DNA of 63,929 bases from the IMG/VR virus record IMGVR_UViG_3300034117_000797, positions 1 through 63,929 of that record. The stretch is one strand, 5' to 3'. Source of the DNA: a virus. Its lineage: Duplodnaviria; Caudoviricetes. The notes beneath the pieces were generated by a model. That model saw only the letters and a program-made list of their open reading frames with translations. It was not told the origin of the DNA and made no database searches. This document shows positions 3,248 through 36,157 of the stretch, piece after piece (position 1 is the stretch's first letter; each line of letters begins with the position of its first letter). Made by a program: the position numbers and the translations under genes.

Positions 3248-3583
3248 ATGCAACAAGAACACATCAAACAAGTTAGAAGTATCGTAGAAGAACTTCAGTC
3301 AAGTACAAGGGAGTATAATATTTATGTGTCCCATAAAAGCATTGCCGTAGACTCATCATTCTCTTCGTCAGAATATGTGGTAGCAACAAGCCCAACACGT
3401 TTAGTTTCTATATGCTACGGGTATGACATAGGCTTTACAAAGTGGCACGAACTGAAGGGATGCACTTTATTATTGTCCGAAATACACAACCCTGATAGCG
3501 ATGATTGTTACGAAAAACTGTTCTTATCAATCGACCTAGACACGATGGAGTTAACAAAATTAGATATAAAAATAAAAGATTAA
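3248..3583 (+). CDS. Hypothetical protein
   Basis: 111 aa, AACCAAAATG start context. Confidence 0.75.
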   Translation: MQQEHIKQVRSIVEELQSSTREYNIYVSHKSIAVDSSFSSSEYVVATSPTRLVSICYGYDIGFTKWHELKGCTLLLSEIHNPDSDDCYEKLFLSIDLDTMELTKLDIKIKD

Positions 3584-3603
3584 ATCAATTAAAAACAACC
3601 AAA

Positions 3604-3801
3604 ATGGAACAAGGAACAAACTTAAAAAATGAAGTACTAACAAAGCGTGAATACTTCGCTGCCATAGCTGTACAAGGGATGATTGAGAAAGCAACACTTA
3701 GCTTGCACGGAAATGTATGGATAAATGAAGACAACAAAAAGAATATGGTAAGAATTGCCGTAGAGATAGCAGACAAGTTAATAGAAGAATTAAACAAATA
3801 A
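3604..3801 (+). CDS. Small phage protein of the LTKREYFAA..A.QG type
   Basis: Widespread phage motif; true ATG is likely 3604. Confidence 0.7.
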   Translation: MEQGTNLKNEVLTKREYFAAIAVQGMIEKATLSLHGNVWINEDNKKNMVRIAVEIADKLIEELNK

Positions 3802-3812
3802 ACCAAAGAACA

Positions 3813-4121
3813 ATGAGAAATCTATTTACCTATGGGACACTGCAAAAGCACTATGTCCAAGAAGAACTAATCGGAAGAATCCAAGAAGGAGATGTTGATG
3901 CAATCGAAGGATTTGTAGTAACAAACGACTACTTTGTAGACGATGACTTTTACCCACGACTTATCCCCTTCTTAAACGGGATTGTGTATGGTAGAGTTAT
4001 GCAATTCACTGACGAGGAAATCGCAGTGCTAGATGAGTACGAATCCGAAGCATACGAGCGAGTAGTAATCAATACAAAAATGGGCAGAGAGGTAGAGGTC
4101 TATATGCCAGTTCAACAGTAA
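3813..4121 (+). CDS. Gamma-glutamylcyclotransferase (GGCT/AIG2-like)
   Basis: N-terminal LFTYGTL, VYG, LDEYE..YER motifs. Confidence 0.9.
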   Translation: MRNLFTYGTLQKHYVQEELIGRIQEGDVDAIEGFVVTNDYFVDDDFYPRLIPFLNGIVYGRVMQFTDEEIAVLDEYESEAYERVVINTKMGREVEVYMPVQQ

Positions 4122-4152
4122 TCAATTAAGTACAACCAATAAAACAACCAAA

Positions 4153-5883
4153 ATGGAAACAAAAAATTTCTTCGTAAAAAATGAGTTCTCTAACAGCGAT
4201 GCAGAGACATTAGCAAATGACAAATGGTCTAAGTTCATTCGCTGGATGAATAGCCTAAGTAGCACACAGTTCAGTGGCAATGTTCTTAATGACCACTATG
4301 GGGTTCGTGCTGACGGCTCAACAAACTCACGCAGTTGGATTAACGCAGGTGAAGAAGTGGTCTCGTTAGATGAAGCTTTATTGCGTATCAATTACGAACG
4401 ATTCAATCGTCGTAAAAGCTTTGTAGTAGAATGTACTGACACTACGAACACAGATTGGCGTAGGTTCATTGACCTACTTAATGACGCATACAATGTTAGC
4501 TATGACGGAGATTTGTTAGGGCATACTTATGGTCTAATAGAAAGCAACCCTAAGTGTCTGGGAGCAGTTGGTATGTCTAGCCACTGCCCTATGATATTGC
4601 CTGTAGATGAGGGCATAGCACTTCTTGAATGTATTGTAAACAAAAAAAGAATAGATATGGAAACAATGGTAACAACTTACAACGGTGATGAACACCCAGC
4701 ATCAGATTGCGTGGTGTTAGACAATGAATCAGGCAATGGCGGTGAGTATGCGCTCAAAAGCGAATGTTTATACAGCCGTGTACACAGCGGGTATATCTTG
4801 CAGTCTGAGGCCGTAGAAGATGCACGAGGTCACTTCTTCGTCGAAGACAATGCAGATGACCTAGATTATGTGTGGTCTGACTTCAACGATGCGTGGATTA
4901 ACACGAATTGGAATGATACTGTTTACGGTTACACTGGACACAGCGAAGAGTATTTTATGTCAGACGAATACGTCTACATCAATGGCACTTACTTCGTCGA
5001 CTCAGGTGTGGCCAATGACCACGGATACCACTACGACAGCGACGAGGATGAGTGGTACCACGAAGATGATGAGCGACCTGCTCGTGTGTCTAGATGCAAT
5101 AGTGGTTATCACTCAGGTCGTGGGCGTGAGTTCCGTGCAGGTAACGCCAAGTTCACGATAGGTGTAGAGATTGAGAAAGAAGATGATGTAGCAGGCCTCA
5201 TTCATTGGAGTAAGGTGTATAGCAATACTGGTTGGATTAAGGAGAATGATGGTTCTCTTGACTGCAATGGGTATGAGTTAGTGTCGCCTGTATTCGACTT
5301 GTTCAACGATGGTATGGACAAGGAGATTGACGGCTCAAGCGACCTTCAAGAGTTGATTGATGCAGAGTATTCAGACAACTGCGGTGGTCACATCAACCTT
5401 GGTGCTACTGACTATACTCCGGAGCAACTGTTCGAGGGTCTATCATCCTTTATGCCTCTATTGTATACGATGTATCCACATCGCATTGATAGAAGCTACT
5501 GCCAAGCCAAGAAGAAGTACAACTATCGCTCACCTGACAAGTACTCAGCTGTGTACATCAAGCACAATGTAGTAGAGTTCCGTATCTTCCCTGCTGTACG
5601 CAGTGTCAAGAATCTATTGTGGAGACGAGACTTGATTCGCATTATGTGTGACAACATCAACAAGTCCGAGCTTGATGTACTCAAGATGCTTGTCAATCAG
5701 AACAGCAAGTTGTACAAACATCTGCGTAAGATTTACTCGCAAGATGTACTACTTGAGCGCACCAAGCAGTTCATTATGTACACTGAGCGCTTCAATGACA
5801 AGAAGTTGCCACCTATTGACCCTAAGAAGTTCAAGAAGGGCGAGGACAATATCACTGATTCAACTGAAGACCTAGGGGCATAA
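4153..5883 (+). CDS. Putative COOH-NH2 amidoligase (glutamine synthetase/GCS-fold) with a long N-terminal extension
   Basis: C-terminal TIGVEIE, DGSL, YELVSP, CGGHIN, VEFR motifs. Confidence 0.85.
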   Translation: METKNFFVKNEFSNSDAETLANDKWSKFIRWMNSLSSTQFSGNVLNDHYGVRADGSTNSRSWINAGEEVVSLDEALLRINYERFNRRKSFVVECTDTTNTDWRRFIDLLNDAYNVSYDGDLLGHTYGLIESNPKCLGAVGMSSHCPMILPVDEGIALLECIVNKKRIDMETMVTTYNGDEHPASDCVVLDNESGNGGEYALKSECLYSRVHSGYILQSEAVEDARGHFFVEDNADDLDYVWSDFNDAWINTNWNDTVYGYTGHSEEYFMSDEYVYINGTYFVDSGVANDHGYHYDSDEDEWYHEDDERPARVSRCNSGYHSGRGREFRAGNAKFTIGVEIEKEDDVAGLIHWSKVYSNTGWIKENDGSLDCNGYELVSPVFDLFNDGMDKEIDGSSDLQELIDAEYSDNCGGHINLGATDYTPEQLFEGLSSFMPLLYTMYPHRIDRSYCQAKKKYNYRSPDKYSAVYIKHNVVEFRIFPAVRSVKNLLWRRDLIRIMCDNINKSELDVLKMLVNQNSKLYKHLRKIYSQDVLLERTKQFIMYTERFNDKKLPPIDPKKFKKGEDNITDSTEDLGA

Positions 5884-5944
5884 GCCATTAGGTTCACCTT
5901 AATTAACCAACCAAATAATATCAACCAATAAACAAATAGAAATT

Positions 5945-6907
5945 ATGTGCATTGCGATTCTTAACACGAAGGGAGCTACCCTTAAAAAGCAACTATTGAA
6001 GAACTGTTGGGACAATAACAGTGACGGAGCAGGTATGCTCTATATCAATGACTATGGAATGATGGAGGTATTCAAGGAGATGAATTCCTTCGAGTCATTC
6101 TATGCTAAATACAGCGAGGTCAAGCGTATGTATGGTAAGCGCAATATCGTATTGCATTTCCGTATCAGTACACACGGAGGTGTCACAGAAGGTAACTGCC
6201 ACCCGTTTATGGTACACCAAGACTTGGGATTCGTTCATAATGGTATGATTTACAATGTGCCTACTAGCAAGGTTCATTCAGATACCTATATGTTTAACGA
6301 AGTTATACTTAAGAAACTCAAGGAAGGCTTCGAGTATGACGAGGATATCCTTGATATGATTGAGGTGTATATCGGTAGCGGCAGCAAGCTTATCTTCCTC
6401 AATGCTCAAGATGATTGGGCTATCGTTAATGAGAAGGCAGGTCATTGGGCTATGGATTGCTGGTTCTCTAACTCATCTTACAAGCAGGTTAACGATTGGG
6501 TTGACTATGGTGGTACGAAGAAGTACAAGTCTAATGTATATGGATATGGCTCGTATGGCTATGGTACATACAATACTAAATCATATTGGGGTGATATCCA
6601 TATGGATGAAAAGCCTGCTAGCAAGTCTTACTCATTGACTGACGACAACGATAGCAAGCTGTATGACCAATGCTCTGAGTGTGGCTGTCATCTATACGAT
6701 GCCAAGGAATTTACAGCAGGTAAGTGTGAATGGTGCATCGAAGAAGAATTGGTATTGGCAAATAAGCTTGACATAGACGAGATAGAGCATACCTGCGAAT
6801 GCTGCAGTACTTGGGCTAAGCTTAACTACAACGAGAACTATGATGCGTTCATCTGCCGTAAATGCGATGATGAATTGAAAAAAGAAATGGGTGACTACGG
6901 AGCGTAG
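5945..6907 (+). CDS. Class II (Ntn) glutamine amidotransferase with C-terminal CxxC zinc ribbons
   Basis: Cys2 nucleophile (MC), DGAG, HFRISTHG, NCHPF, HNG, SDT; four CxxC-type motifs at the C-terminus. Confidence 0.92.
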   Translation: MCIAILNTKGATLKKQLLKNCWDNNSDGAGMLYINDYGMMEVFKEMNSFESFYAKYSEVKRMYGKRNIVLHFRISTHGGVTEGNCHPFMVHQDLGFVHNGMIYNVPTSKVHSDTYMFNEVILKKLKEGFEYDEDILDMIEVYIGSGSKLIFLNAQDDWAIVNEKAGHWAMDCWFSNSSYKQVNDWVDYGGTKKYKSNVYGYGSYGYGTYNTKSYWGDIHMDEKPASKSYSLTDDNDSKLYDQCSECGCHLYDAKEFTAGKCEWCIEEELVLANKLDIDEIEHTCECCSTWAKLNYNENYDAFICRKCDDELKKEMGDYGA

Positions 6908-6918
6908 TCACTCTCCAC
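6908..6918 (+). promoter_or_regulatory. TCACTCTCCA intergenic motif, copy 3
   Basis: Immediately after the GATase stop, about 20 nt before ATG 6938. Confidence 0.55.
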
Positions 6919-6937
6919 GAACTAAATTCAAAAATTT

Positions 6938-7417
6938 ATGAAAAACTATTTTGTAAAAATGGAAGGCAAACTATTTCTAATGTACCGTGACAGATTCTTC
7001 CATTTTGATATGAATGATGTAGACCCAGACGATTTTTGGGACTCATTCACATACAATGGTGAGGAGTTAGATATTTACTACTACCCCGTATTAGATTCGT
7101 TGACGATATACAATGTACACGATGAGACAGGTCAAATAGACACATCTCAATTCGAGACGGCTGAATATCTTGGCAATCTAACTAATAAGTATGTAGTCAT
7201 AGATGTGGCACAAAGGTCTAATAGCGATGAATACATAAGAAGGTACAAGGACAGCGGAGACATAATTATGTATGATAGTTACACTTTGGCTCGTACAAAT
7301 GTTATCCCTACCGAAGCAGTAGTACTTGTAGCAGGTCTATATGAATTGAACTTAGAAACATTATTAACACAAATGAAAAACAATTATGAACGAGACAACG
7401 CATTTAGAGGTGCTTAA
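6938..7417 (+). CDS. Hypothetical protein
   Basis: 159 aa ORF. Confidence 0.75.
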   Translation: MKNYFVKMEGKLFLMYRDRFFHFDMNDVDPDDFWDSFTYNGEELDIYYYPVLDSLTIYNVHDETGQIDTSQFETAEYLGNLTNKYVVIDVAQRSNSDEYIRRYKDSGDIIMYDSYTLARTNVIPTEAVVLVAGLYELNLETLLTQMKNNYERDNAFRGA

Positions 7418-7568
7418 TGTAGCAGCATCTATTCGATACTCACTGATTGAGGCTCAGATTGAGTATGTAATCCAAAACTTTGACGAAATGGCTCAGAGAG
7501 ACCCGTCTGGAGATAGGATACTATGGATTGAGCAGTTAATTTATGAATTTGACGACCACTGCAGATGA
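7386..7568 (+). CDS. Hypothetical protein
   Basis: 60 aa, ATGA-coupled to the next gene. Confidence 0.6.
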   Translation: MNETTHLEVLNVAASIRYSLIEAQIEYVIQNFDEMAQRDPSGDRILWIEQLIYEFDDHCR

Positions 7569-7846
7569 AAAACTTAGACAAAGCAATACTAGATACTTAT
7601 AGGCAACTGTATGCTAACTCAACTCCTCCTGCTGACTTCGATAAGCTATTAGATGAAGCACCGTTGAATGAACACGGACAAAAAGTAATAGACTTTATGG
7701 CTTACGAAATAGAGGAGGAGGTACACGATAGGATAATGCAGGATGCTATGAAGAAGTATAAGATTAAGCATAAGATATTGAAGAACGCATTCAAGTTTAC
7801 AATAGACTTAGGTTGTTCACCACGAATTAAAACAAATGAATTATGA
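7565..7846 (+). CDS. Hypothetical protein
   Basis: 93 aa, coupled on both sides. Confidence 0.75.
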   Translation: MKNLDKAILDTYRQLYANSTPPADFDKLLDEAPLNEHGQKVIDFMAYEIEEEVHDRIMQDAMKKYKIKHKILKNAFKFTIDLGCSPRIKTNEL

Positions 7847-16852: not shown

Positions 16853-17326
16853 ATGATATATTTAATTTCACACGAAAACAAATTTTTGAAGATTGGGTAC
16901 ACTAAAAATATCCATAAACGATTAAGTCAACTACAAACTTCAAATCCAGTCAAATTAGAAGTCTTACACCTTATAGAAGGAAACACTGATTTAGAGAAAG
17001 AACTTCATCAATCATTTGGTCATTTAGTTGTAAGTGGTGAATGGTTTGAATTTCATGAATCTATACTAGATTACTTTAAGGATAAAGAATGCTTGATGTG
17101 GTCAGCAGGATTTACTATTAGTGAAAAAGTGTCAGTTACAGGATTGATAAAAGCAGAAAGATTAAAATTAAATATGTCATTAGAAACCCTTGGTGATATG
17201 TATGGATGCACAGCACAGTCAGTTCGTGAAATAGAACAAAGAGAAATTCAAGGCTCATTGACTCTAGGGATATTGTATAAGATGGCAAAATTATTTAACA
17301 AGAAGTTTGAATACAGATTCAAATGA
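16853..17326 (+). CDS. GIY-YIG (T5orf172/MUG113-like) nuclease fused to an XRE HTH
   Basis: MIYLI..LKIGYT..RLSQLQT.NP...GEWF; C-terminal LIKAERLKLNMSLETLG...QSVREIE. Confidence 0.85.
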   Translation: MIYLISHENKFLKIGYTKNIHKRLSQLQTSNPVKLEVLHLIEGNTDLEKELHQSFGHLVVSGEWFEFHESILDYFKDKECLMWSAGFTISEKVSVTGLIKAERLKLNMSLETLGDMYGCTAQSVREIEQREIQGSLTLGILYKMAKLFNKKFEYRFK

Positions 17327-18803: not shown

Positions 18804-19176
18804 CAAAAGGAAATACGGAAACAAGAAGATAGAAGTTGACGGGGTTAAGTTTGATTCTAAATTAGAGATGAAATGCTATAACCTCCTTAAAGAGATGGGG
18901 TTCTCTTTTGAATTTCAGAAACAGATAACACTAGTAGATAAATTCAGATACAACAAGGAAGCAATCAGGGCAATAACAATAGTAGTAGACTTCGTTTTAG
19001 ACCACGACGGACATACAATCTACATAGACACCAAAGGATTCGCAACGGAAGTATCAAAGATTAAATACAAGATGTTACGCTATATACTGAAAGACGAAGA
19101 GAACACCGATGTGGTTTGGCTTCACACACAAAAAGAAGTCAGTGATTATTTGATTAAGTTAAAAGAAGAAAAATGA
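18793..19176 (+). CDS. DUF1064-like PD-(D/E)xK endonuclease
   Basis: KYGNKKIEVDGVKFDSKLE, VDF...IDTKG. Confidence 0.8.
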   Translation: MGFSKRKYGNKKIEVDGVKFDSKLEMKCYNLLKEMGFSFEFQKQITLVDKFRYNKEAIRAITIVVDFVLDHDGHTIYIDTKGFATEVSKIKYKMLRYILKDEENTDVVWLHTQKEVSDYLIKLKEEK

Positions 19177-19574
19177 GTAGTTTGAACAAAGTGATGTTGC
19201 TTGGCAACGTCGGAAACGTAGATGTAAAAGACCTAGAAGGAGGTCGTAAATTAGTTCAGTTGTCATTGGCAACATCTGATGGTTACAAGAAAGATGGCGA
19301 ATGGGTAGACAAAACTGAATGGCACAAGTGTGTGTTTGCTATCCCAACTCTTGCTGAACGTGCTGCTAACATCAGCAAAGGAGACAAGATTTATGTTGAA
19401 GGAAGTATCAACACAAACAGTTGGACAAATAAAGAAGGAGAAAAGAAAGAGTTCAAAGAGATTTCTTGCGTGTCATTCAAGACATTCTCTAAGAACAAAA
19501 GCACAGAAGCGCCAAATGAAGCTCCTCAAGTAGCTATTAAATCAGCTACAGAGCCTGAGGATTTACCATTCTAA
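19173..19574 (+). CDS. ssb: Single-stranded DNA-binding protein
   Basis: LNKVMLLGNVG, TEWH, KGDKIYVEG, C-terminal DLPF. Confidence 0.95.
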   Translation: MSSLNKVMLLGNVGNVDVKDLEGGRKLVQLSLATSDGYKKDGEWVDKTEWHKCVFAIPTLAERAANISKGDKIYVEGSINTNSWTNKEGEKKEFKEISCVSFKTFSKNKSTEAPNEAPQVAIKSATEPEDLPF

Positions 19575-27622: not shown

Positions 27623-30600
27623 TTAAAAATTGCGTCTGAATCTGCTCCTTGCTTTTATCACATCACCTTCTTCTGCTGAAATTCCAGATTCATCTTCAGT
27701 GAACATATCAGGCTCTTTATCTTCGTCTGCAGGAGTATAGCTAGGCTCTCCATTCTTTTCAATGTATGGAATACCATAGAACATTTCAAATATTCTGTCG
27801 TTTTTACCTCTCTCTTTATTTTTCTCCATGTAATCCATATCCCAATTCATGATTGCATTTGTGAAGTCTTGCGCTCCATCCATCCATTCACCTATATTGG
27901 AAACCAAATCACTGACATTCTTTAATCCTATAGCTTTAGTTATATCGTCGTACTCTTTTTCTGTAGTCTTATTTATCCAAAATCTATCATTAAATTGTTC
28001 TGCATATCTATCGACGTTCTCTCCAGAATCAAAAGTCTTCTCACCTTCTCTTTCTAAGAAATCTTTTCTTTGAGCCGTTGTCATATTACCCCACCAGTCT
28101 CTTTTTGCTGCATCATACATTATTGGAGTAGTCTCCCAAAGACCTATCAATGTTTTTAAGATTGGAACATTATCCTTCCAGTCATCATCTCTCATGTGAT
28201 TTAAGAATCCATCTATTACAAATCCAGGCATTCCGTATCCTTGGAACATTGAACCTAAAGCATCCATTCCTGTGTCGTGAAGCGCTCGTTTCTTAGCATC
28301 TTCGTCGTCTCCCATAAGCACTGAAATAGCTCCATTGGCAATCACAGAGAACAACAGTGAAGCGGCAAGTGTATAGTATGTAATATCAACTGATGCTTTT
28401 ACAATCTCTCTATCAGATATTGCTTCTCTTCTTGCCTCAACGCCTTCTTCTTTTTGCATTCTATTTGCTTGATAAATAGTACGCATTCCTGTAACTACTT
28501 TCTTAGCCGCAGCCATTTGCCCTGTTCGGTACATACCAAGCATTCTAAATGTTTCATCAAGCTGTATGTTACTCGTTAAGTCAGCACGAGTAGACTGCTG
28601 AGACAATTCAGTCTCTGTGATGAATTGCTCTAATGCATAGGCTTTTGCTTCCTCATGAGTCATACCCTCTGATAAAGCATGTCTATAAGATGCAGTGGCA
28701 AAAAATAAACCACCTCCAGGCCCGTACAACAAGGCAAATTTATCACCATATCTTACTGGAGCCATTGCTGCTTGAGAGAACTTAGACCATACTTTAGCTG
28801 ATGTGCTATTTTGAGCCTGCTCCATCAATCTTTTCATTTCAACGTCAATATGCTGACCTGTCAATCGCTCTTTAACATAATCGCTACCAATTATGTCTTT
28901 TACAAGTTCTAATTCGTCTTTATTGACTGGCGCACCTTTCCATATTTGAAGAGGGTCTAATCCCTTATCTATACCAGCTACCCAATAGTGAGTAAATCCA
29001 ACAAACTGCTTAGCTAACGAGGAAGGCTTAAATCCAAGAGTAGTTACAACGGTATAATTCCTAATTCCCATCAATATGTTTCTTACCGAAGAACTTGGAG
29101 CTGAAATCCCCTGATTGCTAAGTACTCTTGCTGTATGTGTTTTGATGTCGTTGTAGTCATCAATTCCTAAATTCTTTATTAAATGTGGTGCATTGATTGC
29201 ACTAAATAATTCGTTGACTTTTTTGGCAATGGGCATAAAGTTTTTAGCATGCTCCATATTTTTTACATAGTCAAGATATTTAGCATGAGCGTCCATACCA
29301 ATATTGAAGTTACCTTGATAATTCTTTTTTGCCTTCATGTTATTAGAAGTGGCATTCATCATATTGAATGACCCATCATCCCCCATTAAGCTTCCTTCAT
29401 CTACAAAATTTTGAGTATAATCAGATGCATTAGCAGGGTAATAAGGAAAATCTCCAGAAGGGAAAGGAGTTCCTGTATATGCCACATATGTTGGCTCATA
29501 CTCAACTCCAAGCTCTTTGTATTTTTCCATTAAGAAATCAGCGTATTTTTTTAGCTGAGCATCTCCTTCAACATGAGCAATAACTGCATCTACATCAACA
29601 CCAGAATTTGTAAGTCTCTTAACTCCATCTTTAGTTTGAGCAAGATTGTAGTAATCAATAACGTGACCATTTGTTATATTGACTCCTTTTGCAACCTCAG
29701 AAGTAACAATTCCATCTACCGACTCAGATAACTTATCAATCGCCTTAGAGCCACGCTTGGCTACACCTGCTCTTTCCTTAGCTTTCTTAGCAGGATATGT
29801 TCCGAATATCTCATCTAATTTTTCGTAGTACTCGTTTACCTTTTTGCTATAAGCAATATCCCTAGCGACATAAGCCTTTTTAACTGGCTCCATTATATTA
29901 TCTCTAACAAATCTAGCTACAGCTGGGCTTTTAGACCAAGTTTTAGTGTATAATGAATACAAGTCGTTTATTGCTTTTGTTGGAGTAAGGAAATTGATTA
30001 CTCTATTGATTAGCTTCTTACTTTTTGCTCTTTCATTTAGCTTAGCCAATTCAGAATTTTCTTGCTTATATCCAGTCGCTCCAACAACTTCTACATCTGC
30101 ATTAGGCATAGAATCATATTTCGCTTGAGCCGTGCTTAATTGTTTATTTTTAGCGTTAATCTTTTTTGAAATAGCCTTCAAATCAGGGTCAGTAGATTCA
30201 TTACCTCCTTCGACTATAACCTCTTCCAGTCGAGTTTCATAATCTCTTTTTAGGTCAGTTATCTCCTCTTCAATATCTGCTATTTTCTCACCTTGCTTTC
30301 CTTTTTGAGTGTCTTTATTTATTAGTTGCGTAAATGAACCCTTATCATATAGTTTACCATCAACGACTACTTTTCCTCCCTTATCAAAGAAATCCATTAT
30401 CTCATCAACAGAATTAAGGGTAGTCCCCTGACCCTTAGCAAGACCTTGTATCAATGCAGCAGCACGTTCTCTTTTAGCATTATCGTCTAATGCTTTTAGT
30501 CGCTTGTAATCAGCTTTACCTTCAGATACTATTCCATCAATAATGTCATTTATCTCATCAAGCTCTTCTTGTGTCTTTCCATCAAGCTCATCCATGTTTA

Positions 30601-33600
30601 TGTTGTTGATAAACTTGAAATATTCCTTCTGAGCTTCCACAGTAGTCTTTCCAACCCATTTATTCCCTTGACGGCTAAGGATAGTTCTTTTACTTTTGGC
30701 CTTATCTCGAATTTCCTTGATGGTCGCCTTTCTATTTCTCTCAGCAGTCTTAGCATCACGCTTAGCTGTGCTTTCGTTTTTCTTGGCAATAATAGCATCA
30801 ATTCTATCCAATGCGGCCTCAAGGTCCTTAGCTTTTAGAGCTGCTGTAATCTTATTAAATTCAGCATTGGTATATTCACCTTTAGGAAGATTCTTCTTTG
30901 CATAGTCAAGGATTTGATTGCGCATTTTATTCATCCATATGCGAGTCTCTTTACCTGCCTTTTCCTTGTCTCTCAACTGCTTTCTTAATGCCTCAGATTC
31001 AGTCATCTGAATAGTCTTTTCATCTTTAGCAGTTCCTGTTGACTCAGCGACTTTTTTACCAAACTCTTTAGCCGCAGCTTTCTCAGCAGAAGTCATCTTG
31101 CCCTCGTCGAACAAGTTGTTCATTCCTGCGTTGTAATCAGCTGCTGCTTGTTGTTTTTGCGCTCTATTCAATCCTTTATACCAATCAGAATTCTTAACTA
31201 CCTTGAATCCTGCGTCTATTGCTTTTTGAACCGTTTCGGCAGACATACCTGCGGCTTCAACTACTTTGGCTGCAGCCTCTAATGACGTGTTCCATACAGC
31301 ATCAAATCCAGGGATAGATGATTTCAGTCCTTCACCGCCTAATTTACCTGCTCTAATCTTATTGGCAAAGTCCTTAGCAATTTGAGAGATAGTTCTTCCT
31401 TCTATTACTGGCTCAGCTGTTGTTTCAGTTTGAGTTTCCGTAACAGGCGCAGTCATTTTAGTTTCATCAACAGACGTATTTTCTAGCAACCTCTTTCTAA
31501 TGTCCTCCTGCATTTGATTGTATGCAGCATCAGGTATAGCATCAAATCGAACTTCATACTTGCTTCCTTCATTGTACTTATTATTGAAGTCATTAAGTAC
31601 TGCCTCAATGTCTTTCTTTGCTGCGTCAATATCCGTTCCTTTAGGAACAGAAATACTACCACCTATATATCCAGACCTTCCGCCTTGTCCTCCTCTTGAT
31701 TTTTCTAGGGCGCCTAACTTAAAGTGTATTATGTTTTCGTTCTCTTTTGTGTCATCTACAGCAAATCCTTTTTCATCAAATGGTATATCAACAGAGTTCT
31801 TACCGCCTTCAGTTTCTACTCTTACGAAAGGCATTCTGATGTCAGGTGCTTCTCCCTTAAAATTAGAGTTAGCCAAATCTTTTCGACCATCTGGAGTTCC
31901 ATGTATTGCAATTCCAACCTCTTCATCTTTTATTTTTCTCTTCTTAGCTGGAGCTTCAGCTGTAGGCTCAGTAGGAGTAGGAGTAATTGTAGGTTCAGTA
32001 GCTGTTTCAACCGTAGGAGTTTCAACGGTGCCTGTAGATGTAGGAGTTTCAGCTACTGTTGTTTCTGCTATTGGTGCGCTCGTTGCAGCTTCAGCAACAG
32101 GAGCCTCAGCGGCAGTTGTTTCAGCGGCAGGAGTTTGCTCAACCTTAACCATGTTAAGCTTTTTCCTTGTGTTAAATATGTTACCTAGAGCTGTTGAGCT
32201 GAGAGATTTATCAGCAGGAACATAACCCTGCTTAGCTAATTCTTGAGCTTCTTCTAGGCTTCGAGCAGTAGCCTTTTGTGGTTTAGGCGGTTTAGGAGCT
32301 TCAGCAGGTGTTTCAGTAGTTGCTTCGGCAGCAGGAGCTACTTGTTCAGCTTGCCCTTGTTCTTCTTGAACCACTCCACCAGTGCTAGGCGCTTCTTCGC
32401 TTGTCCCAGCGACAGGTTGTCCTTCGACAGGTTCTTGCCCTTCTCCGACTTGACCTGATACCCCTTCTTCGTCTTTTTTATCATTTTCTTCGATTGTTTG
32501 TTCTACCGCTTGTTGCTTACCCTTATTCTCAGCAAACTCTTCAACCTTGCTATCTGCCTCATTTAAGTCAGCTCTGATAGCTTCAATAGCAGCGTCTACT
32601 TGTTCCTTTGATTTTGGAGGTAATTTTTCATACGCATCTTTAGCACCTTTAGATTCAGTAAGACCAAATCCTGCCCCCATAATAAACGATGAAATCAAAA
32701 ATTCTTGAACTTGGTCAAAAGTACCAAACTGCTTACCCAATTCAGCCTTCATCTCTCCCCAACTATCAGTTCTTTGGTAGATTCCAACAAGCTCCTGCAT
32801 TGTTTCCTCCCCTGTCTCACCAATACCACGAGCAGTAGCTTCTCCTCCTTTTTTAATTACATTGATGGCCGCATCAACTTTGTTCCCAAATATACCTTGA
32901 AGATATTTGTAAACTTGGTCTTTAGGCATCTTAGAGAAAAATACTCCAAGAGACTCAGAAACCACTCCTCCTGCCATGAAAGACAAGAAGTTTAGTTCAT
33001 CTTCCTGAGAGGTAAAGATGTCCCCTGCAATCTCAGCTTTTACAGCCGATTCGATTGTTGGCTTTAGGAATCTACCAAATCGTGTAGATTGAAGTGCGCT
33101 ATTGTATATCTTCTCAGCAGTGCTTACAATCTTTGCTGTCTTCGTTACATTTGCGCCAGTGATAAGGCCTTCAATTCCTTTAACCACCCTAAGAGCTGTA
33201 GATGGAACTCCTGCGGTTAAAACCATTGGCGCTATGATTGCGGCAGTAGTACCAGTCATGCTACCCCATTTCTCCATGCTCCAAAAGTCAACCTTAGATT
33301 GCTCCTCCAATTTCTTAGCCATCTCAGGAGTAACAAAGTCATCTTCCTTGAATCCGAACTCTTGCAATTTCTGAGCAGTTACGGCAGAAGCCTCTGACAA
33401 GTTAGCAAAACCTTCAGCCTTAGCTGTATTAGGGAATAAAGTTGAATAGAATGAATTAGTAAATGATTCCCAAAATCCAGTACCATCATTTGATAGCATG
33501 TCGCTATTGTTGAAGTATAGAGGAGCCATTTTACTCAATGTCGCCTTATTCTGCAACCATTGTTTTTCTACTTTTGACAACGCATAGAATCCATCCCAAT

Positions 33601-36157
33601 CCACCATGTCTTTAACCTTCATGTTGGCATTGCCAAGTCCTTCGGTGTTTAATCCGTTCTCCTTAGCTATTCTGTCGTTCTCAGCGGCCAATCGCTCATA
33701 TATCAAGTCAAATTGTTGCTTAGGAGTAATATCCTTTGGTATAGCAGCTATGATGTTGTATGCGTCTTCTGACATGCTCAGAGCAAGTTGCTGAGCAGTT
33801 TTCTTAGGCTCAGTTAAGAACGCTGCATCCGTTGCGTATATCTTCTTGTCAATCAGCGTTTCATAATCATCTGCTTGGCTTTTCGACTTTTCAAGTTCAG
33901 AAACTACAGCTTGGTACTCAGTAGATTTCTCATCCACTCCATTTCGCTTCATCTCAGATAATGAACTCTCAAGCTTAACGATATTACGTTTTTCAGCGGC
34001 AAGCTTTTGTCTATCATCCTGTATCTTAGCCTGAGATTCTGCGTATTTCTCTCCTTGTAAAGCTGTATATGTATTAACATATTCAGCAAGTTTGCTTTCA
34101 AGGTATTGTCTTTCCGTTCCACTGATGTTTGGAGAGATTACATATTGACCTGCCTCTGGGTCGAATCGCATCTTTCCATTGTCGACATTACTCAATACAA
34201 AATCAGCCATCTGAGATGTATTGTTAAAAATCATTACATCTTCAGAAAATATATCAGTCTTCCCACTAGCAAGCAAATCATCAGCCATCTCCATTTTCTT
34301 CTCAAGCGAAACTCTTGATAAGCTTTTGTTTTCTGCTCTTGCCTTGTTTATCTCAGCGTTGATTTGTTTAGATTCGTTGAAATACGTTTCGGCTTGCTTA
34401 AGAACTTCTTCTACTTTTGATGCCTTAGCAACGGTATAAGAGCCGTCCCCAATGATGTCCTTAATTTTATTTTGGTACTCTAGGAAGGAAGTCATTTGGT
34501 CTCCAGTCAAAACTTGAATTGGCGAACCATCAGCAGCTTTAATAGTAAGCTGACTCATTATGTCAGTATTAGCAAAATTCTGAGCCTTATTAAATGATGC
34601 TTTCTTTTCTTGAGAAACAGTTGCTTTTTTCTCCATCATCAACTGCTCAACGGAAGGTGTAAGCGAATATGTACCTGGGATTACACCCTCATTAAGAACA
34701 CCTTGTCTTTTTATGATTGCACCTAAATCATTGTAATCCGAGGCTTTTACCGCTTCAAATGCTCTTAAGTCAAGCTGAGCTTTTCTCTTAGCCACATCCC
34801 CCTCTGTCATTTGGACATAGTTAGAACCACCCTTAGGGTCTATAAGCCAATCGCCGTTTTCACGTTTATATGAGGCTTTGCTTCCAGGATATATATAAAT
34901 ACCATCAGGTTTGTATTGTAATATAGCGCCAGTATTAAGCTTAGCTTTTCTGTACGTTACATCGCCTTTCGTCATAGGCACAAAGTTGGTTCCTCCTTTA
35001 GGGTCAATAAACCAATCTCCGTTCTTTCTCTGATAAGTCGCATTTGAATCAGGGTATCTATACACACCATCAAGCAACTCTCCTGCTTTTTTTGTCTCTA
35101 CACCAAATGTTTCTTTAGCCTTTGCAGTTTTAGGGTCGTAATTAAAGTTAATCGTACCATCTGCGTTATATTGCTCTGTATTACTCTTAGCTCCGCCCTT
35201 GGTGAAATCATCAAAAGTAAAGTTGTTTTCAGCAACTCTATTGCCCTCAACCTCTTTTCGCATATCACCAAATCTTTGATTGATGATTTCGTTTGCTTTT
35301 TTCTGTGTTTCAGATACAGTTGCTTGGGCATTGGACTCAAGATATTCAGCTCGAGACTCTAAATTATCTCCACCTATCGGCTGATAGTCTCCAGTCAAGT
35401 TAGCATCCTTGTACCATTTACCATCTATCTTTTGATAGTTAGCTGATTTACCTGCCAATCGGTAAGAACCATCAGGTAATCCTTGAGCGTCTTTCTTCTC
35501 TTCTGCACCTACAGTTATTTTCCCTAAGTCATCAATCTGAATACCTTCATTTTTGTATTTAGCATTGACATCTGCAAGGTTGATTTTTGGCTCAACATCA
35601 ATACCACCAACAGGTACTCCATCAGGAGTTTCATTAGGAATTATAGGTTCCTCAACAACTTCGCCTTCTTCGTCTTCTTTAATTATAGGCTGTTTTTCTT
35701 CTTTCTTTGGAATCTGAGGAGCAGCCACAGGAACTCCATCAGGAGTTGTTTCTGGTATATTTAAGGTTGGAGTTTCTACTTTGTCTTCGTCAAAAGCAGG
35801 CTCTACATTTTCCAATCCAAGCCTGTTGATAACATCTGTTTCTGTCTCAATAGGAGACTCAGGAGTAATAGGTTGACCTTCTGCAGGCTGTTCTGCATTA
35901 GGCTCTTCAGTTGGAACCATAGGAATAGCAGGCTGTTCCTCAGCAGTAAGTGGACCTTCTGCTGGAGGTGGCTCCTCATTTGCGACTTGCTCAGCAGGAA
36001 CCTCACTTGGAACTTCTGTCTGCGGAGTCTCTGCTTGTACTGGTGGTATATTCGCTTGGAATTCTTCTGGAGTTGCTTGAGTACTATTCTCAGCTTGAAT
36101 TGTCTCGCCTACTCCACCCGTCTGAGTAGACATTAAATTGTTAGAACCTGCGCCCAT
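27623..36157 (-). CDS. Giant (2844 aa) internal virion / DNA ejection protein
   Basis: Size, position, P/E-rich linkers, hydrophobic Gly/Ala helices, helical C-terminal half; promoter element at 36173-36180. Confidence 0.7.
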   Translation of the reverse strand: MGAGSNNLMSTQTGGVGETIQAENSTQATPEEFQANIPPVQAETPQTEVPSEVPAEQVANEEPPPAEGPLTAEEQPAIPMVPTEEPNAEQPAEGQPITPESPIETETDVINRLGLENVEPAFDEDKVETPTLNIPETTPDGVPVAAPQIPKKEEKQPIIKEDEEGEVVEEPIIPNETPDGVPVGGIDVEPKINLADVNAKYKNEGIQIDDLGKITVGAEEKKDAQGLPDGSYRLAGKSANYQKIDGKWYKDANLTGDYQPIGGDNLESRAEYLESNAQATVSETQKKANEIINQRFGDMRKEVEGNRVAENNFTFDDFTKGGAKSNTEQYNADGTINFNYDPKTAKAKETFGVETKKAGELLDGVYRYPDSNATYQRKNGDWFIDPKGGTNFVPMTKGDVTYRKAKLNTGAILQYKPDGIYIYPGSKASYKRENGDWLIDPKGGSNYVQMTEGDVAKRKAQLDLRAFEAVKASDYNDLGAIIKRQGVLNEGVIPGTYSLTPSVEQLMMEKKATVSQEKKASFNKAQNFANTDIMSQLTIKAADGSPIQVLTGDQMTSFLEYQNKIKDIIGDGSYTVAKASKVEEVLKQAETYFNESKQINAEINKARAENKSLSRVSLEKKMEMADDLLASGKTDIFSEDVMIFNNTSQMADFVLSNVDNGKMRFDPEAGQYVISPNISGTERQYLESKLAEYVNTYTALQGEKYAESQAKIQDDRQKLAAEKRNIVKLESSLSEMKRNGVDEKSTEYQAVVSELEKSKSQADDYETLIDKKIYATDAAFLTEPKKTAQQLALSMSEDAYNIIAAIPKDITPKQQFDLIYERLAAENDRIAKENGLNTEGLGNANMKVKDMVDWDGFYALSKVEKQWLQNKATLSKMAPLYFNNSDMLSNDGTGFWESFTNSFYSTLFPNTAKAEGFANLSEASAVTAQKLQEFGFKEDDFVTPEMAKKLEEQSKVDFWSMEKWGSMTGTTAAIIAPMVLTAGVPSTALRVVKGIEGLITGANVTKTAKIVSTAEKIYNSALQSTRFGRFLKPTIESAVKAEIAGDIFTSQEDELNFLSFMAGGVVSESLGVFFSKMPKDQVYKYLQGIFGNKVDAAINVIKKGGEATARGIGETGEETMQELVGIYQRTDSWGEMKAELGKQFGTFDQVQEFLISSFIMGAGFGLTESKGAKDAYEKLPPKSKEQVDAAIEAIRADLNEADSKVEEFAENKGKQQAVEQTIEENDKKDEEGVSGQVGEGQEPVEGQPVAGTSEEAPSTGGVVQEEQGQAEQVAPAAEATTETPAEAPKPPKPQKATARSLEEAQELAKQGYVPADKSLSSTALGNIFNTRKKLNMVKVEQTPAAETTAAEAPVAEAATSAPIAETTVAETPTSTGTVETPTVETATEPTITPTPTEPTAEAPAKKRKIKDEEVGIAIHGTPDGRKDLANSNFKGEAPDIRMPFVRVETEGGKNSVDIPFDEKGFAVDDTKENENIIHFKLGALEKSRGGQGGRSGYIGGSISVPKGTDIDAAKKDIEAVLNDFNNKYNEGSKYEVRFDAIPDAAYNQMQEDIRKRLLENTSVDETKMTAPVTETQTETTAEPVIEGRTISQIAKDFANKIRAGKLGGEGLKSSIPGFDAVWNTSLEAAAKVVEAAGMSAETVQKAIDAGFKVVKNSDWYKGLNRAQKQQAAADYNAGMNNLFDEGKMTSAEKAAAKEFGKKVAESTGTAKDEKTIQMTESEALRKQLRDKEKAGKETRIWMNKMRNQILDYAKKNLPKGEYTNAEFNKITAALKAKDLEAALDRIDAIIAKKNESTAKRDAKTAERNRKATIKEIRDKAKSKRTILSRQGNKWVGKTTVEAQKEYFKFINNINMDELDGKTQEELDEINDIIDGIVSEGKADYKRLKALDDNAKRERAAALIQGLAKGQGTTLNSVDEIMDFFDKGGKVVVDGKLYDKGSFTQLINKDTQKGKQGEKIADIEEEITDLKRDYETRLEEVIVEGGNESTDPDLKAISKKINAKNKQLSTAQAKYDSMPNADVEVVGATGYKQENSELAKLNERAKSKKLINRVINFLTPTKAINDLYSLYTKTWSKSPAVARFVRDNIMEPVKKAYVARDIAYSKKVNEYYEKLDEIFGTYPAKKAKERAGVAKRGSKAIDKLSESVDGIVTSEVAKGVNITNGHVIDYYNLAQTKDGVKRLTNSGVDVDAVIAHVEGDAQLKKYADFLMEKYKELGVEYEPTYVAYTGTPFPSGDFPYYPANASDYTQNFVDEGSLMGDDGSFNMMNATSNNMKAKKNYQGNFNIGMDAHAKYLDYVKNMEHAKNFMPIAKKVNELFSAINAPHLIKNLGIDDYNDIKTHTARVLSNQGISAPSSSVRNILMGIRNYTVVTTLGFKPSSLAKQFVGFTHYWVAGIDKGLDPLQIWKGAPVNKDELELVKDIIGSDYVKERLTGQHIDVEMKRLMEQAQNSTSAKVWSKFSQAAMAPVRYGDKFALLYGPGGGLFFATASYRHALSEGMTHEEAKAYALEQFITETELSQQSTRADLTSNIQLDETFRMLGMYRTGQMAAAKKVVTGMRTIYQANRMQKEEGVEARREAISDREIVKASVDITYYTLAASLLFSVIANGAISVLMGDDEDAKKRALHDTGMDALGSMFQGYGMPGFVIDGFLNHMRDDDWKDNVPILKTLIGLWETTPIMYDAAKRDWWGNMTTAQRKDFLEREGEKTFDSGENVDRYAEQFNDRFWINKTTEKEYDDITKAIGLKNVSDLVSNIGEWMDGAQDFTNAIMNWDMDYMEKNKERGKNDRIFEMFYGIPYIEKNGEPSYTPADEDKEPDMFTEDESGISAEEGDVIKARSRFRRNF

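Follow-up and report, generated by a model that had tools for sequence, protein, structure and literature searches.

Therapy candidates from the LUZ24 and phiEco32 groups are among the many phages that carry an amidoligase cassette, listed in annotations as a 'peptidoglycan modification module' since 2009, without experiment. The cassette is said to have been predicted by Iyer et al. in 2009, and gp77-gp88 of phiEco32, together with their counterparts in LUZ24, PaP3, RIO-1 and PSA-HP1, were reportedly described as a 'putative peptidoglycan modification cassette' by Iyer et al. in 2009 and Hardies et al. in 2013. Here we describe a related module in a 63.9-kb virus record of IMG/VR (IMGVR_UViG_3300034117_000797; this whole stretch of DNA is referred to below as the window). 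Four consecutive open reading frames (ORFs) on the plus strand, separated by 31, 61 and 30 nucleotides (nt), occupied positions 3813-7417 and encoded a cyclotransferase (GGCT), a ligase (LIG), an amidotransferase (GAT) and a fourth protein (ORF4). The module is a compact, strongly diverged variant of the phiEco32/LUZ24-type cassette, and the LIG-GAT pair is its core and minimal conserved unit. The genes and their parts were as follows.

3813-4121, plus strand: GGCT, a GGACT/AIG2-like gamma-glutamyl(amine) cyclotransferase of 102 amino acids (aa), from Pfam PF06094
4153-5883, plus strand: LIG, a divergent amidoligase of 576 aa, from its AlphaFold2 (AF2) model, fold matches and distant relatives
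5140-5772, plus strand: predicted catalytic domain of LIG (aa 330-540), glutamine-synthetase/YbdK-like fold, from Foldseek, VIA and BFVD
5872-5880, plus strand: C-terminal tail of LIG, Leu-Gly-Ala, from the C-termini of homologues
5945-6907, plus strand: GAT, a stand-alone class-II, N-terminal nucleophile (Ntn) glutamine amidotransferase-like protein of 320 aa ending ..DYGA, from Pfam GATase_4
5945-6484, plus strand: Ntn-hydrolase domain of GAT (aa 1-180) with putative nucleophile Cys2, from an alignment of 56 sequences
6671-6865, plus strand: two zinc-ribbon-like Cys clusters of GAT (aa 243-307), from Cys motifs
6938-7417, plus strand: ORF4, a 159-aa partner protein ending ..FRGA, modelled by AF2 as a beta-meander with a long C-terminal helix

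Three papers, on Pseudoalteromonas phages (PMC5498523), a LUZ24-like phage (PMC11945000) and OM43 phages (PMC10580990), treat the genes as a putative module for cell-wall modification or superinfection exclusion, refer to Iyer 2009 and Hardies 2013, and call the function unknown. In line with these papers, the first-pass annotation of positions 3813-6907 had stated that similar sets were predicted in other phages without a defined substrate. The OM43 paper also places an amidoligase of the PF12224 family together with a GATase in MEP401/402 and in more than 30 viral genomes, and Lee et al. 2021 (PMC8989533) report that, in viral contigs, genes for amidoligase and amidotransferase neighbour those for thymidine hypermodification. 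No experimental characterisation of the cassette was found in the literature, subscription journals and supplements lying outside the scope of the search.

The gene order of phiEco32 (NC_010324) resembled that of the window, as the amidoligase gene was directly followed by a class-II GATase gene, with a GGCT gene in the same operon and replication genes nearby. LIG could be aligned motif for motif with phiEco32 gp84 (E 0.015, 132 columns) and GAT with gp83 (hhalign probability 82.7, E 9.5e-6), while the LIG profile aligned with gp86, a protein of the PF14395 type, at an hhalign E-value of 0.12 over 61 columns. The differences were nevertheless considerable. The module of the window comprised four genes, compared to approximately 12 in the phiEco32 cassette, and GAT was 320 aa long, as opposed to 676 aa in phiEco32. 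Unlike phiEco32, the window encoded no ATP-grasp (RimK-like) or further ligase family and no PF14395 COOH-NH2 ligase, according to a Pfam scan of 76 ORFs that left out a 2844-aa ORF, five doubtful ORFs and ORFs shorter than 60 aa. LIG, unlike the phiEco32-type ligases, escaped the Pfam model and contained a 325-aa N-terminal region, and the module had ORF4 and shared ..GA tails on top of the enzymes. Neither LIG nor GAT was found by tblastn in phiEco32- or LUZ24-type phages at E ≤ 1e-3.

The same two-gene core headed the replication module of the Methylophilales (OM43) phages MEP401 and MEP402 (gp06-gp07). Among GenBank phages, GAT found its best match here (41% identity across residues 1-181, E 8e-35), and gp06 of MEP402, with 548 aa similar in size to LIG, aligned with LIG over the catalytic motifs (E 0.0017). 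No GGCT or ORF4 was annotated in either phage, and LIG was not detectable there by tblastn. The sole GenBank phage record matched by LIG in tblastn was MW202828 (Podoviridae sp. ctfjg026, an uncultured phage from spring water; 24% identity, E 2e-7). It encodes a 574-aa LIG homologue followed by GAT, but here GAT and GGACT are fused, whereas in the window they are separate genes flanking LIG.

The ligase-amidotransferase core

LIG was not evident from family models. It gave no match in Pfam, PHROGs, NCBIfam or the PDB sequences, either as a single sequence or as a profile; the protein (P0002) did not match PF12224 Amidoligase_2 (cut-off 22 bits) at E ≤ 0.1, and a six-frame translation of the window gave nothing with the PF12224 and PF14395 models even at E ≤ 10. 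A blastn search with the 3.1-kb stretch against GenBank phages returned no match naming LIG, and none of the 120 LIG homologues listed had a precomputed Pfam domain. The identity of the protein emerged from its AF2 model, for which the mean predicted local distance difference test score (pLDDT) was 91.9. The model comprised an N-terminal alpha/beta and beta-hairpin region (aa 1-~325), the catalytic domain, an acidic linker and the tail. Residues 330-539 matched glutamine synthetase (GS), GmaS and YbdK in a Foldseek search of the PDB (probability 0.98-1.00), and VIA returned Z scores of 8.9-9.6 with a root-mean-square deviation of 3.5-3.7 over 172-190 residues. The matched structures included 1-naphthylamine GS, and all were enzymes forming gamma-glutamyl amides. 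The BFVD search gave 52 viral models with E ≤ 0.001 to LIG, and many bore the name 'Amidoligase enzyme'; the best named match had an E-value of 4.6e-12 and the best of all, unnamed, 2.2e-19. Cellulophaga, Pseudomonas tf and Salinivibrio CW02 phages were among the sources of these models. The GS or glutamate-cysteine ligase (GCS) fold, whose lack the first-pass annotation had named among the grounds for refutation, was thus present in the model.

A profile search of 1.84 billion representatives yielded 880 LIG-family members at E ≤ 1e-3, of which 684 reached E ≤ 1e-10. Among 94 of the more distant listed representatives, which matched the LIG profile at E ≤ 1e-62, PF12224 was reached at E ≤ 0.01 by 23 (best 9.4e-6) and other ligase families by none. 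Sub-threshold PF12224 matches were also present in two of nine LIG homologues from viral loci (E 0.033 and 0.095). In an alignment of 140 sequences, G411, H413, R444, E475, R477 and R491 were invariant and E339, E341, K342, E343, E364, D366 and E375 nearly so; the conserved core consisted of G-x-E-x-E-K-E, D-G-S-L, G-x-E-L-V-S-P, C-G-G-H-I-N, E-F-R and W-R-R. The fold, the relatives reaching PF12224 and the aligned motifs together place LIG as a deep branch of the Amidoligase_2/GS-like carboxylate-amine ligases. LIG is accordingly predicted, from its model, to possess the GS/YbdK (carboxylate-amine ligase) catalytic fold with the acidic, His and Arg residues intact. The record contained one copy of the gene. 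The family was nearly virus-only, with three contigs of metagenome-assembled genomes detected among 185,579 species genomes, and this large viral branch (880 representative clusters) is invisible to current family models. For residues 1-325, the ESM Atlas offered weak LIM-domain leads only (score 0.77-0.78). A small domain was repeated twice at the start of LIG in the window (F-x-V-x-N ... W-x-x-F-I-x-x-L-N ... Y-G), and the homologues P0086, P0094 and P0114 (800-805 aa) contained additional N-terminal copies of it.

GAT matched Pfam GATase_4 with an E-value of 2.8e-6 (26.9 bits, cut-off 23), and its score for GATase_6 (22.6 bits) was under the cut-off of 27. Further matches were to PHROG 25883 (1.7e-13), NCBIfam glmS (2.5e-8) and, weakly, EgtC (0.014). 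The protein begins with Met-Cys, and the sequence MCIAI(L/M)N was common to 52 distinct homologues. M1, C2, R73, T76, H86, N99, G100 and D113 were invariant across the 56 aligned sequences. R73, N99-G100 and D113 would correspond to R73, N98-G99 and D123 of GlmS. By comparison with GlmS and PurF, these residues, together with C2 and T76, would supply the nucleophile and the oxyanion hole and hold the free alpha-carboxyl and alpha-amino groups of a glutamine or gamma-glutamyl head group. The last 80 residues contained the Cys motifs CSEC (243), CEWC (261), CECC (284) and CRKC (304), as anticipated by the first-pass annotation, which had proposed a zinc-ribbon tail on the GATase. The second ribbon was kept across most of the family, with C284 present in at least 90% of the sequences. 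According to Pfam and the alignment, the C-terminal 140 aa consisted of a low-complexity linker and the zinc ribbons, and no fused synthase/acceptor or other enzyme domain was found there. Judged by its sequence, GAT is a stand-alone Ntn amidohydrolase with a Cys nucleophile. A complex prediction of LIG with GAT scored 0.00 (mark 0.32), a value that weighs neither for nor against binding.

GGCT was assigned with Pfam: residues 4-98 aligned with positions 1-101 of the 120-position GGACT profile PF06094 (E 6.3e-11, 43.3 bits, cut-off 22.8). It contains YGTL near the N-terminus and LDxxE..YxR further on, stretches that we assume to be the catalytic motifs. The protein of the window was confined to two clusters among 5.8 billion proteins, no close relatives were found in IMG/VR, and the gene also occurred in L083, a 91%-identical relative. 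The three adjacent genes with catalytic motifs described in the first-pass annotation are therefore real, and its assignments as GGCT, amidoligase and class II amidotransferase all hold, with GGACT and GATase_4 above their cut-offs and LIG recognised by structure.

The neighbourhood of the ligase was surveyed in 79 IMG/VR loci encoding a LIG relative. GAT was present in 68 of them and was located within 300 nt of a ligase in each of the 68. The other 11 loci were all cut short, either less than ~0.9 kb beyond the LIG match or by the start of the contig, and no locus with an intact flank lacked GAT. GAT lay directly downstream of LIG in 55 loci, and in the other 13 the nearest ligase came after GAT. 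Ten of these 13 had the order ligase-GAT-ligase; in L058 and L059 the first ligase was further upstream, and L024 contained GAT-ligase only. The minimal conserved unit of the cassette can now be defined as ligase plus Ntn amidotransferase. In one of the loci (L084, 1932-1952), the contig end directly after the GAT stop codon resembled what we take to be a sequencing adapter, so this end is probably an assembly artefact.

The co-conservation expected of all three genes was not observed. A GGACT gene was detected in 1/79 loci (L031, iterated search), and Pfam assigned GGACT to one of 129 neighbour-family representatives, the families being derived from the 259 neighbouring ORFs of 75 aa or more that lay on the same strand and no further than four genes away. 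It lay upstream of LIG in the window, in L083 and in L031. In MW202828, the gene adjoining the LIG homologue encodes a 405-aa GAT::GGACT fusion (GGACT 7.5e-18, GATase_4 6.2e-5) with GGACT at the C-terminus. GGACT has therefore joined the pair independently at least four times (window/L083, L031, the MW202828 fusion and phiEco32 gp77), and this repeated recruitment makes a functional link to the pair likely. The cyclotransferase is a recurrent accessory of the LIG-GAT pair.

ORF4 and the shared C-terminal tails

ORF4 and the C-terminal tail shared by the proteins are new features of the module described here. The AF2 model of ORF4 was of good quality (pLDDT 89.2, predicted template modelling score 0.82), but no convincing fold relatives were recovered (best Foldseek E 0.18; best Z 5.5 in a VIA-wide search, to Rhs-type beta hairpins, below the meaningful level). 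Pfam, PHROG and NCBIfam gave no match, the ESM Atlas nothing usable, and IMG/VR no close relatives, and there was no similarity to the LIG profile. ORF4 homologues formed 24 clusters, and the gene was kept in L083. Contigs of equal size (5873, 18213, 10036, 11306 and 19931) were listed for both ORF4 and LIG homologues, and the LIG homologues on them belonged to the clade with 59-76% identity.

Three of the approximately 85 ORFs of the window ended in Gly-Ala, and these were exactly LIG (..LGA), GAT (..YGA) and ORF4 (..RGA). Each of the best 120 LIG homologues ended in [LMVIQN][GA][ACI], with GA in 88, LGA in 78 and LAA in four; R-[RF]-[GS]-A closed all 22 aligned ORF4 homologues, and GAT homologues of the same clade had LGA ends. 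In the 79 loci, GA ends were found in 11/76 distinct LIG and 9/56 distinct GAT proteins compared to 3/1134 other ORFs, and two of these three were small ORFs just 5' of LIG in L005 and L006. L007 encoded four tailed proteins and L015 three. When scored by locus, the tail was present on both proteins in nine cases, on LIG only in three, on GAT only in one and on neither in 53 (Fisher p 6e-8, uncorrected for shared ancestry). In the wider LIG family, GA ends occurred in 15 of 139 representatives. The tail is confined to one clade, in which the same C-terminal tripeptide is found on every module protein and on some small neighbours; it is thus not needed for catalysis. The Leu, Gly, Ala and stop codons varied at third positions among loci, which points to selection on the protein. 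In LIG, the tail is acidic (..DLGA) and follows the acidic linker, which was modelled with lower confidence (pLDDT 62-64), and in ORF4 it is basic (RRGA) and lies at the end of a predicted helix. Small ORFs of 92, 153 and 50 aa near the ligase also had ..LGA ends (L005/L007/L008, 4116-4647; L006, 4350-4811; L007, 9865-10017), and the 92- and 153-aa proteins were barely alike (26% over 70 aa, E 0.42).

Other clades had a different ending. Seven of 56 distinct GATs (L012, L021, L025-L028, L063, L074) ended in ..PF, similar to the tip of the single-stranded DNA-binding protein (SSB), and the SSB of the window itself (19173-19574) ends in ..EDLPF. These two observations suggest that GAT carries interchangeable C-terminal docking peptides.

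The stop codons of the three tailed genes were enclosed by predicted RNA hairpins, and no such hairpin was found at the GGCT stop codon.

5869-5894, plus strand: RNA hairpin enclosing the LIG stop codon (-12.4 kcal/mol, z -1.9)
6889-6913, plus strand: RNA hairpin enclosing the GAT stop codon (-16.3 kcal/mol, z -3.8; 0/200 shuffles as stable)
about 7405-7431: RNA hairpin enclosing the ORF4 stop codon (-8.9 kcal/mol, z -1.85)

The hairpin at the GAT stop codon was also caught by the terminator scan, on the opposite strand. We rejected the possibility that an RNA or DNA element gives rise to the GA tails as a side effect, since in the related loci folding around the stop codons was at background level and synonymous positions differed: the median stop-region energy of 20 GA-ending genes was -1.8 kcal/mol compared to a background of -2.0 kcal/mol (Mann-Whitney p 0.55). 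A motif, TCAC-NN-TC-N-AC-A/G-A, was located directly 3' of the GAT stop codon (6908-6925) and recurred after the GAT stop in L001, L007, L009, L014, L015, L083 and L085; in L015, it followed all three module genes. A role in promoter activity, processing or re-initiation is conceivable for this conserved intergenic motif.

Candidate reactions of the module

Pairs of enzymes that add and remove gamma-glutamyl groups are known from cellular metabolism, e.g., EgtA/EgtC, GmaS with N-methylglutamate synthase, PuuA/PuuD and BtrJ/BtrG. In such pairs, the product of a GS-fold, GCS-fold or ATP-grasp ligase is later cleaved by an amidotransferase-like hydrolase, such as the gamma-glutamyl-amide hydrolase EgtC, or by a GGCT-fold enzyme, and they offer a precedent for a gamma-glutamyl cycle. 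The cellular pairs act on small metabolites within longer pathways, whereas the pair of the window is virus-only and has targeting-like extra domains. ATP-driven formation and removal of a gamma-glutamyl amide is our leading, if tentative, reading of the module. LIG would use ATP to attach glutamate, through its gamma-carboxyl, to a primary amine of a target, GAT would remove the resulting gamma-glutamyl amide by hydrolysis (releasing Glu and the amine), and GGACT, where present, would remove it by cyclisation (releasing 5-oxoproline and the amine). The phage would in this way gain, early in infection, a reversible cycle driven by ATP in which an amine is masked or carried. The enzymes are probably directed to a macromolecular target or hub, not to a free metabolite, by three features: the large, variable N-terminal half of LIG, the zinc ribbons of GAT and the shared tails. 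The four module proteins were all acidic (isoelectric points of 4.2-5.0) and had no hydrophobic segments; the module is one operon of four soluble acidic proteins, and any envelope target would therefore be a cytoplasmic precursor.

We favour gamma-glutamyl chemistry because no other reading assigns GGACT a role and accounts for its fusion to GAT, and because GAT keeps C2, R73, T76, N99-G100 and D113 and is weakly similar to EgtC. Several points weigh against it. The literature found on the cassette consists of annotation-level mentions, with no substrate or measured activity, and GGACT was absent from 78 of 79 related viral loci. A strict writer-eraser pair is a futile cycle unless there is an intermediate step, and the two-gene core shows no enzyme for one. 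The GS-like fold predicted for LIG implies activation of a carboxylate, not that this carboxylate is glutamate, and the mapping of GAT residues onto the glutamine-binding sites of GlmS and PurF follows a numbering that we have assumed. The amide-modification system proposed in the first-pass annotation, which named host proteins, cell-envelope precursors or defence signals as its targets, is broadly the idea already in print; the enzyme assignments agree with it, but it is supported only in part, since the trio is not a conserved unit.

The strict two-gene core is best explained by a different reaction, in which GAT and LIG are the subunits of a glutamine-dependent amidotransferase, with GAT-derived ammonia delivered to LIG and an ATP-activated carboxylate converted to a carboxamide. 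We consider this possible but doubtful. One conceivable target is D-iso-glutamate in a peptidoglycan precursor of the cytoplasm, and the pair would then function like GatD/MurT or enzymes of the asparagine-synthetase type. The core alone would then carry out a complete reaction, GAT keeps every glutaminase residue, and GS itself takes ammonia as the amine. LIG and GAT were adjacent in 68/68 loci, and the MEP402 genes even overlap (gp06 ends at 3262, gp07 starts at 3253), as is usual for subunits. However, the known ammonia-donating class-II domains are fused to their synthase, while stand-alone ones such as EgtC are hydrolases, and we know of no GS-fold enzyme with a class-II partner. The cell-wall idea is also the one in print (PMC5498523, PMC11945000 and PMC10580990), but there were no cell-wall precursor enzymes nearby, the Pfam scan of the window giving only a lysin-type Amidase_2 match elsewhere. 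GGACT would have no role in amidation, yet it was recruited repeatedly and once fused to GAT. A replication-related target was considered as well, either phage DNA, whose bases would be hypermodified, or a component of the replisome. The module lies in the replication arm, GAT has zinc ribbons and its ..PF tip in some clades resembles that of SSB, and the neighbourhood with thymidine hypermodification in Lee et al. 2021 (PMC8989533) fits such a role. We nevertheless regard it as very improbable, as no dUMP hydroxymethylase, 5-hydroxymethyldeoxyuridine (5-hmdU) kinase, aGPT-Pplase, TET/JBP, DpdA or methyltransferase domain was found at E ≤ 1e-3 among the 76 scanned ORFs of the window (the 2844-aa ORF being outside the scan) or in any of the 129 neighbour families of the 79 loci.

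The tails allow two further explanations. They may act as degrons of the ssrA type or as a handle that docks onto a host hub, so that the host clears the module proteins or brings them together. Such a role, independent of the chemistry and compatible with either glutamylation or amidation, seems unlikely to us but is in keeping with the presence of the tails on functionally different proteins. L-[GA]-[AC] at a free C-terminus after a flexible linker resembles the LAA end of the ssrA tag, an end shared by four of the 120 relatives, and the ..PF ends of other-clade GATs (7/56) resemble the SSB tip (..DLPF in the window). Gly at position -2 and Cys at -1 are unlike a classical degron, though, and the ORF4 tail sits at the end of a predicted helix. 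Alternatively, the tails could be the substrates: LIG would activate the alpha-carboxylate of ..[LR]-G-A proteins (LIG itself, GAT, ORF4 and small early proteins), which would then be amidated with GAT-derived ammonia or ligated to an amine, giving a system for modification or tagging of C-termini. Carboxylate-amine ligases that act on a conserved C-terminal residue of a protein operate in Pup/PafA/Dop and LysW/LysX, LysW combining a zinc ribbon with a conserved tail, and thiopeptide C-terminal amidation is a further loose parallel; PafA is a precedent for a GS-fold ligase acting on a protein carboxylate. The restriction of GA ends to three adjacent module ORFs, their rarity among other ORFs of the loci (two of the three background cases lying just 5' of LIG), the four and three tailed proteins of L007 and L015, the retention of the tail in 120/120 best LIG and 22/22 ORF4 homologues with varying third codon positions, and the lower-confidence linker preceding it in LIG would all fit this proposal. 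We still hold it to be quite improbable. The tail was limited to one clade (15/139 in the wider family; 53 of 66 locus pairs without it), enzymes bearing their own substrate tag would be unusual, the residues of GAT and GGACT indicate a free gamma-glutamyl head group rather than a protein C-terminus, and the basic, helix-terminal end of ORF4 differs from the acidic ..DLGA. The known systems differ too, as the tail of the window ends in Ala and is on the enzymes themselves, while the Pup and LysW tails end in Glu or Gln. Pup is a small disordered tag that ends in GGQ or GGE, whereas ORF4, a folded protein ending in RGA, bears no resemblance to Pup or LysW, and for a Pup-like system the window offered a single ligase and, in the Pfam scan, no proteasome or lysine-pathway genes.

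The tail-tagged proteins are testable partners or substrates. With four genes, soluble products throughout and a built-in candidate handle or substrate, this version offers a much easier system for finding the chemistry than the 12-gene cassettes. If the tails were the substrates after all, a quite improbable outcome in our view, the cassette would be a protein C-terminus modification system whose substrates can be read from the phage's own tail-tagged genes.

Genomic setting and additional observations

The completeness of the window was estimated at 94%. Its plus-strand arm contained small genes and replication genes (Rad52-like annealase, DnaA-like helix-turn-helix (HTH) protein, DnaB helicase, MazG-like protein, DUF1064 and SSB), and its minus-strand arm was structural, encoding a P22-like portal as well as a tail ring protein of the crAss type. 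The module was located on the plus-strand arm, 5' of the Rad52-like, DnaB, MazG-like and SSB genes, a position consistent with an early/replication region. A sigma-70 promoter scan gave 20 promoter-like sites compared to 37.7 in shuffled sequences, and terminators were at chance level. The 2844-aa ORF was in the structural arm (27623-36157, minus strand). Within the replication module, a T5orf172/MUG113 (GIY-YIG-like) domain was fused to HTH_3 (16853-17326, plus strand), and HNH endonuclease matches occurred at other places in the window. A ferritin/Dps-like protein was also encoded; in phiEco32, gp67 of the Dps family lies not far from the amidoligase cassette.

Sequencing runs containing the stretch were lake-water DNA runs only, with no RNA run among them. 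Positions 3600-7600 were near-complete in several of these runs, from differing years and studies. Three runs that were not flagged as a possible source contained 53-84% of the sampled words, which indicates that the phage recurs in freshwater.

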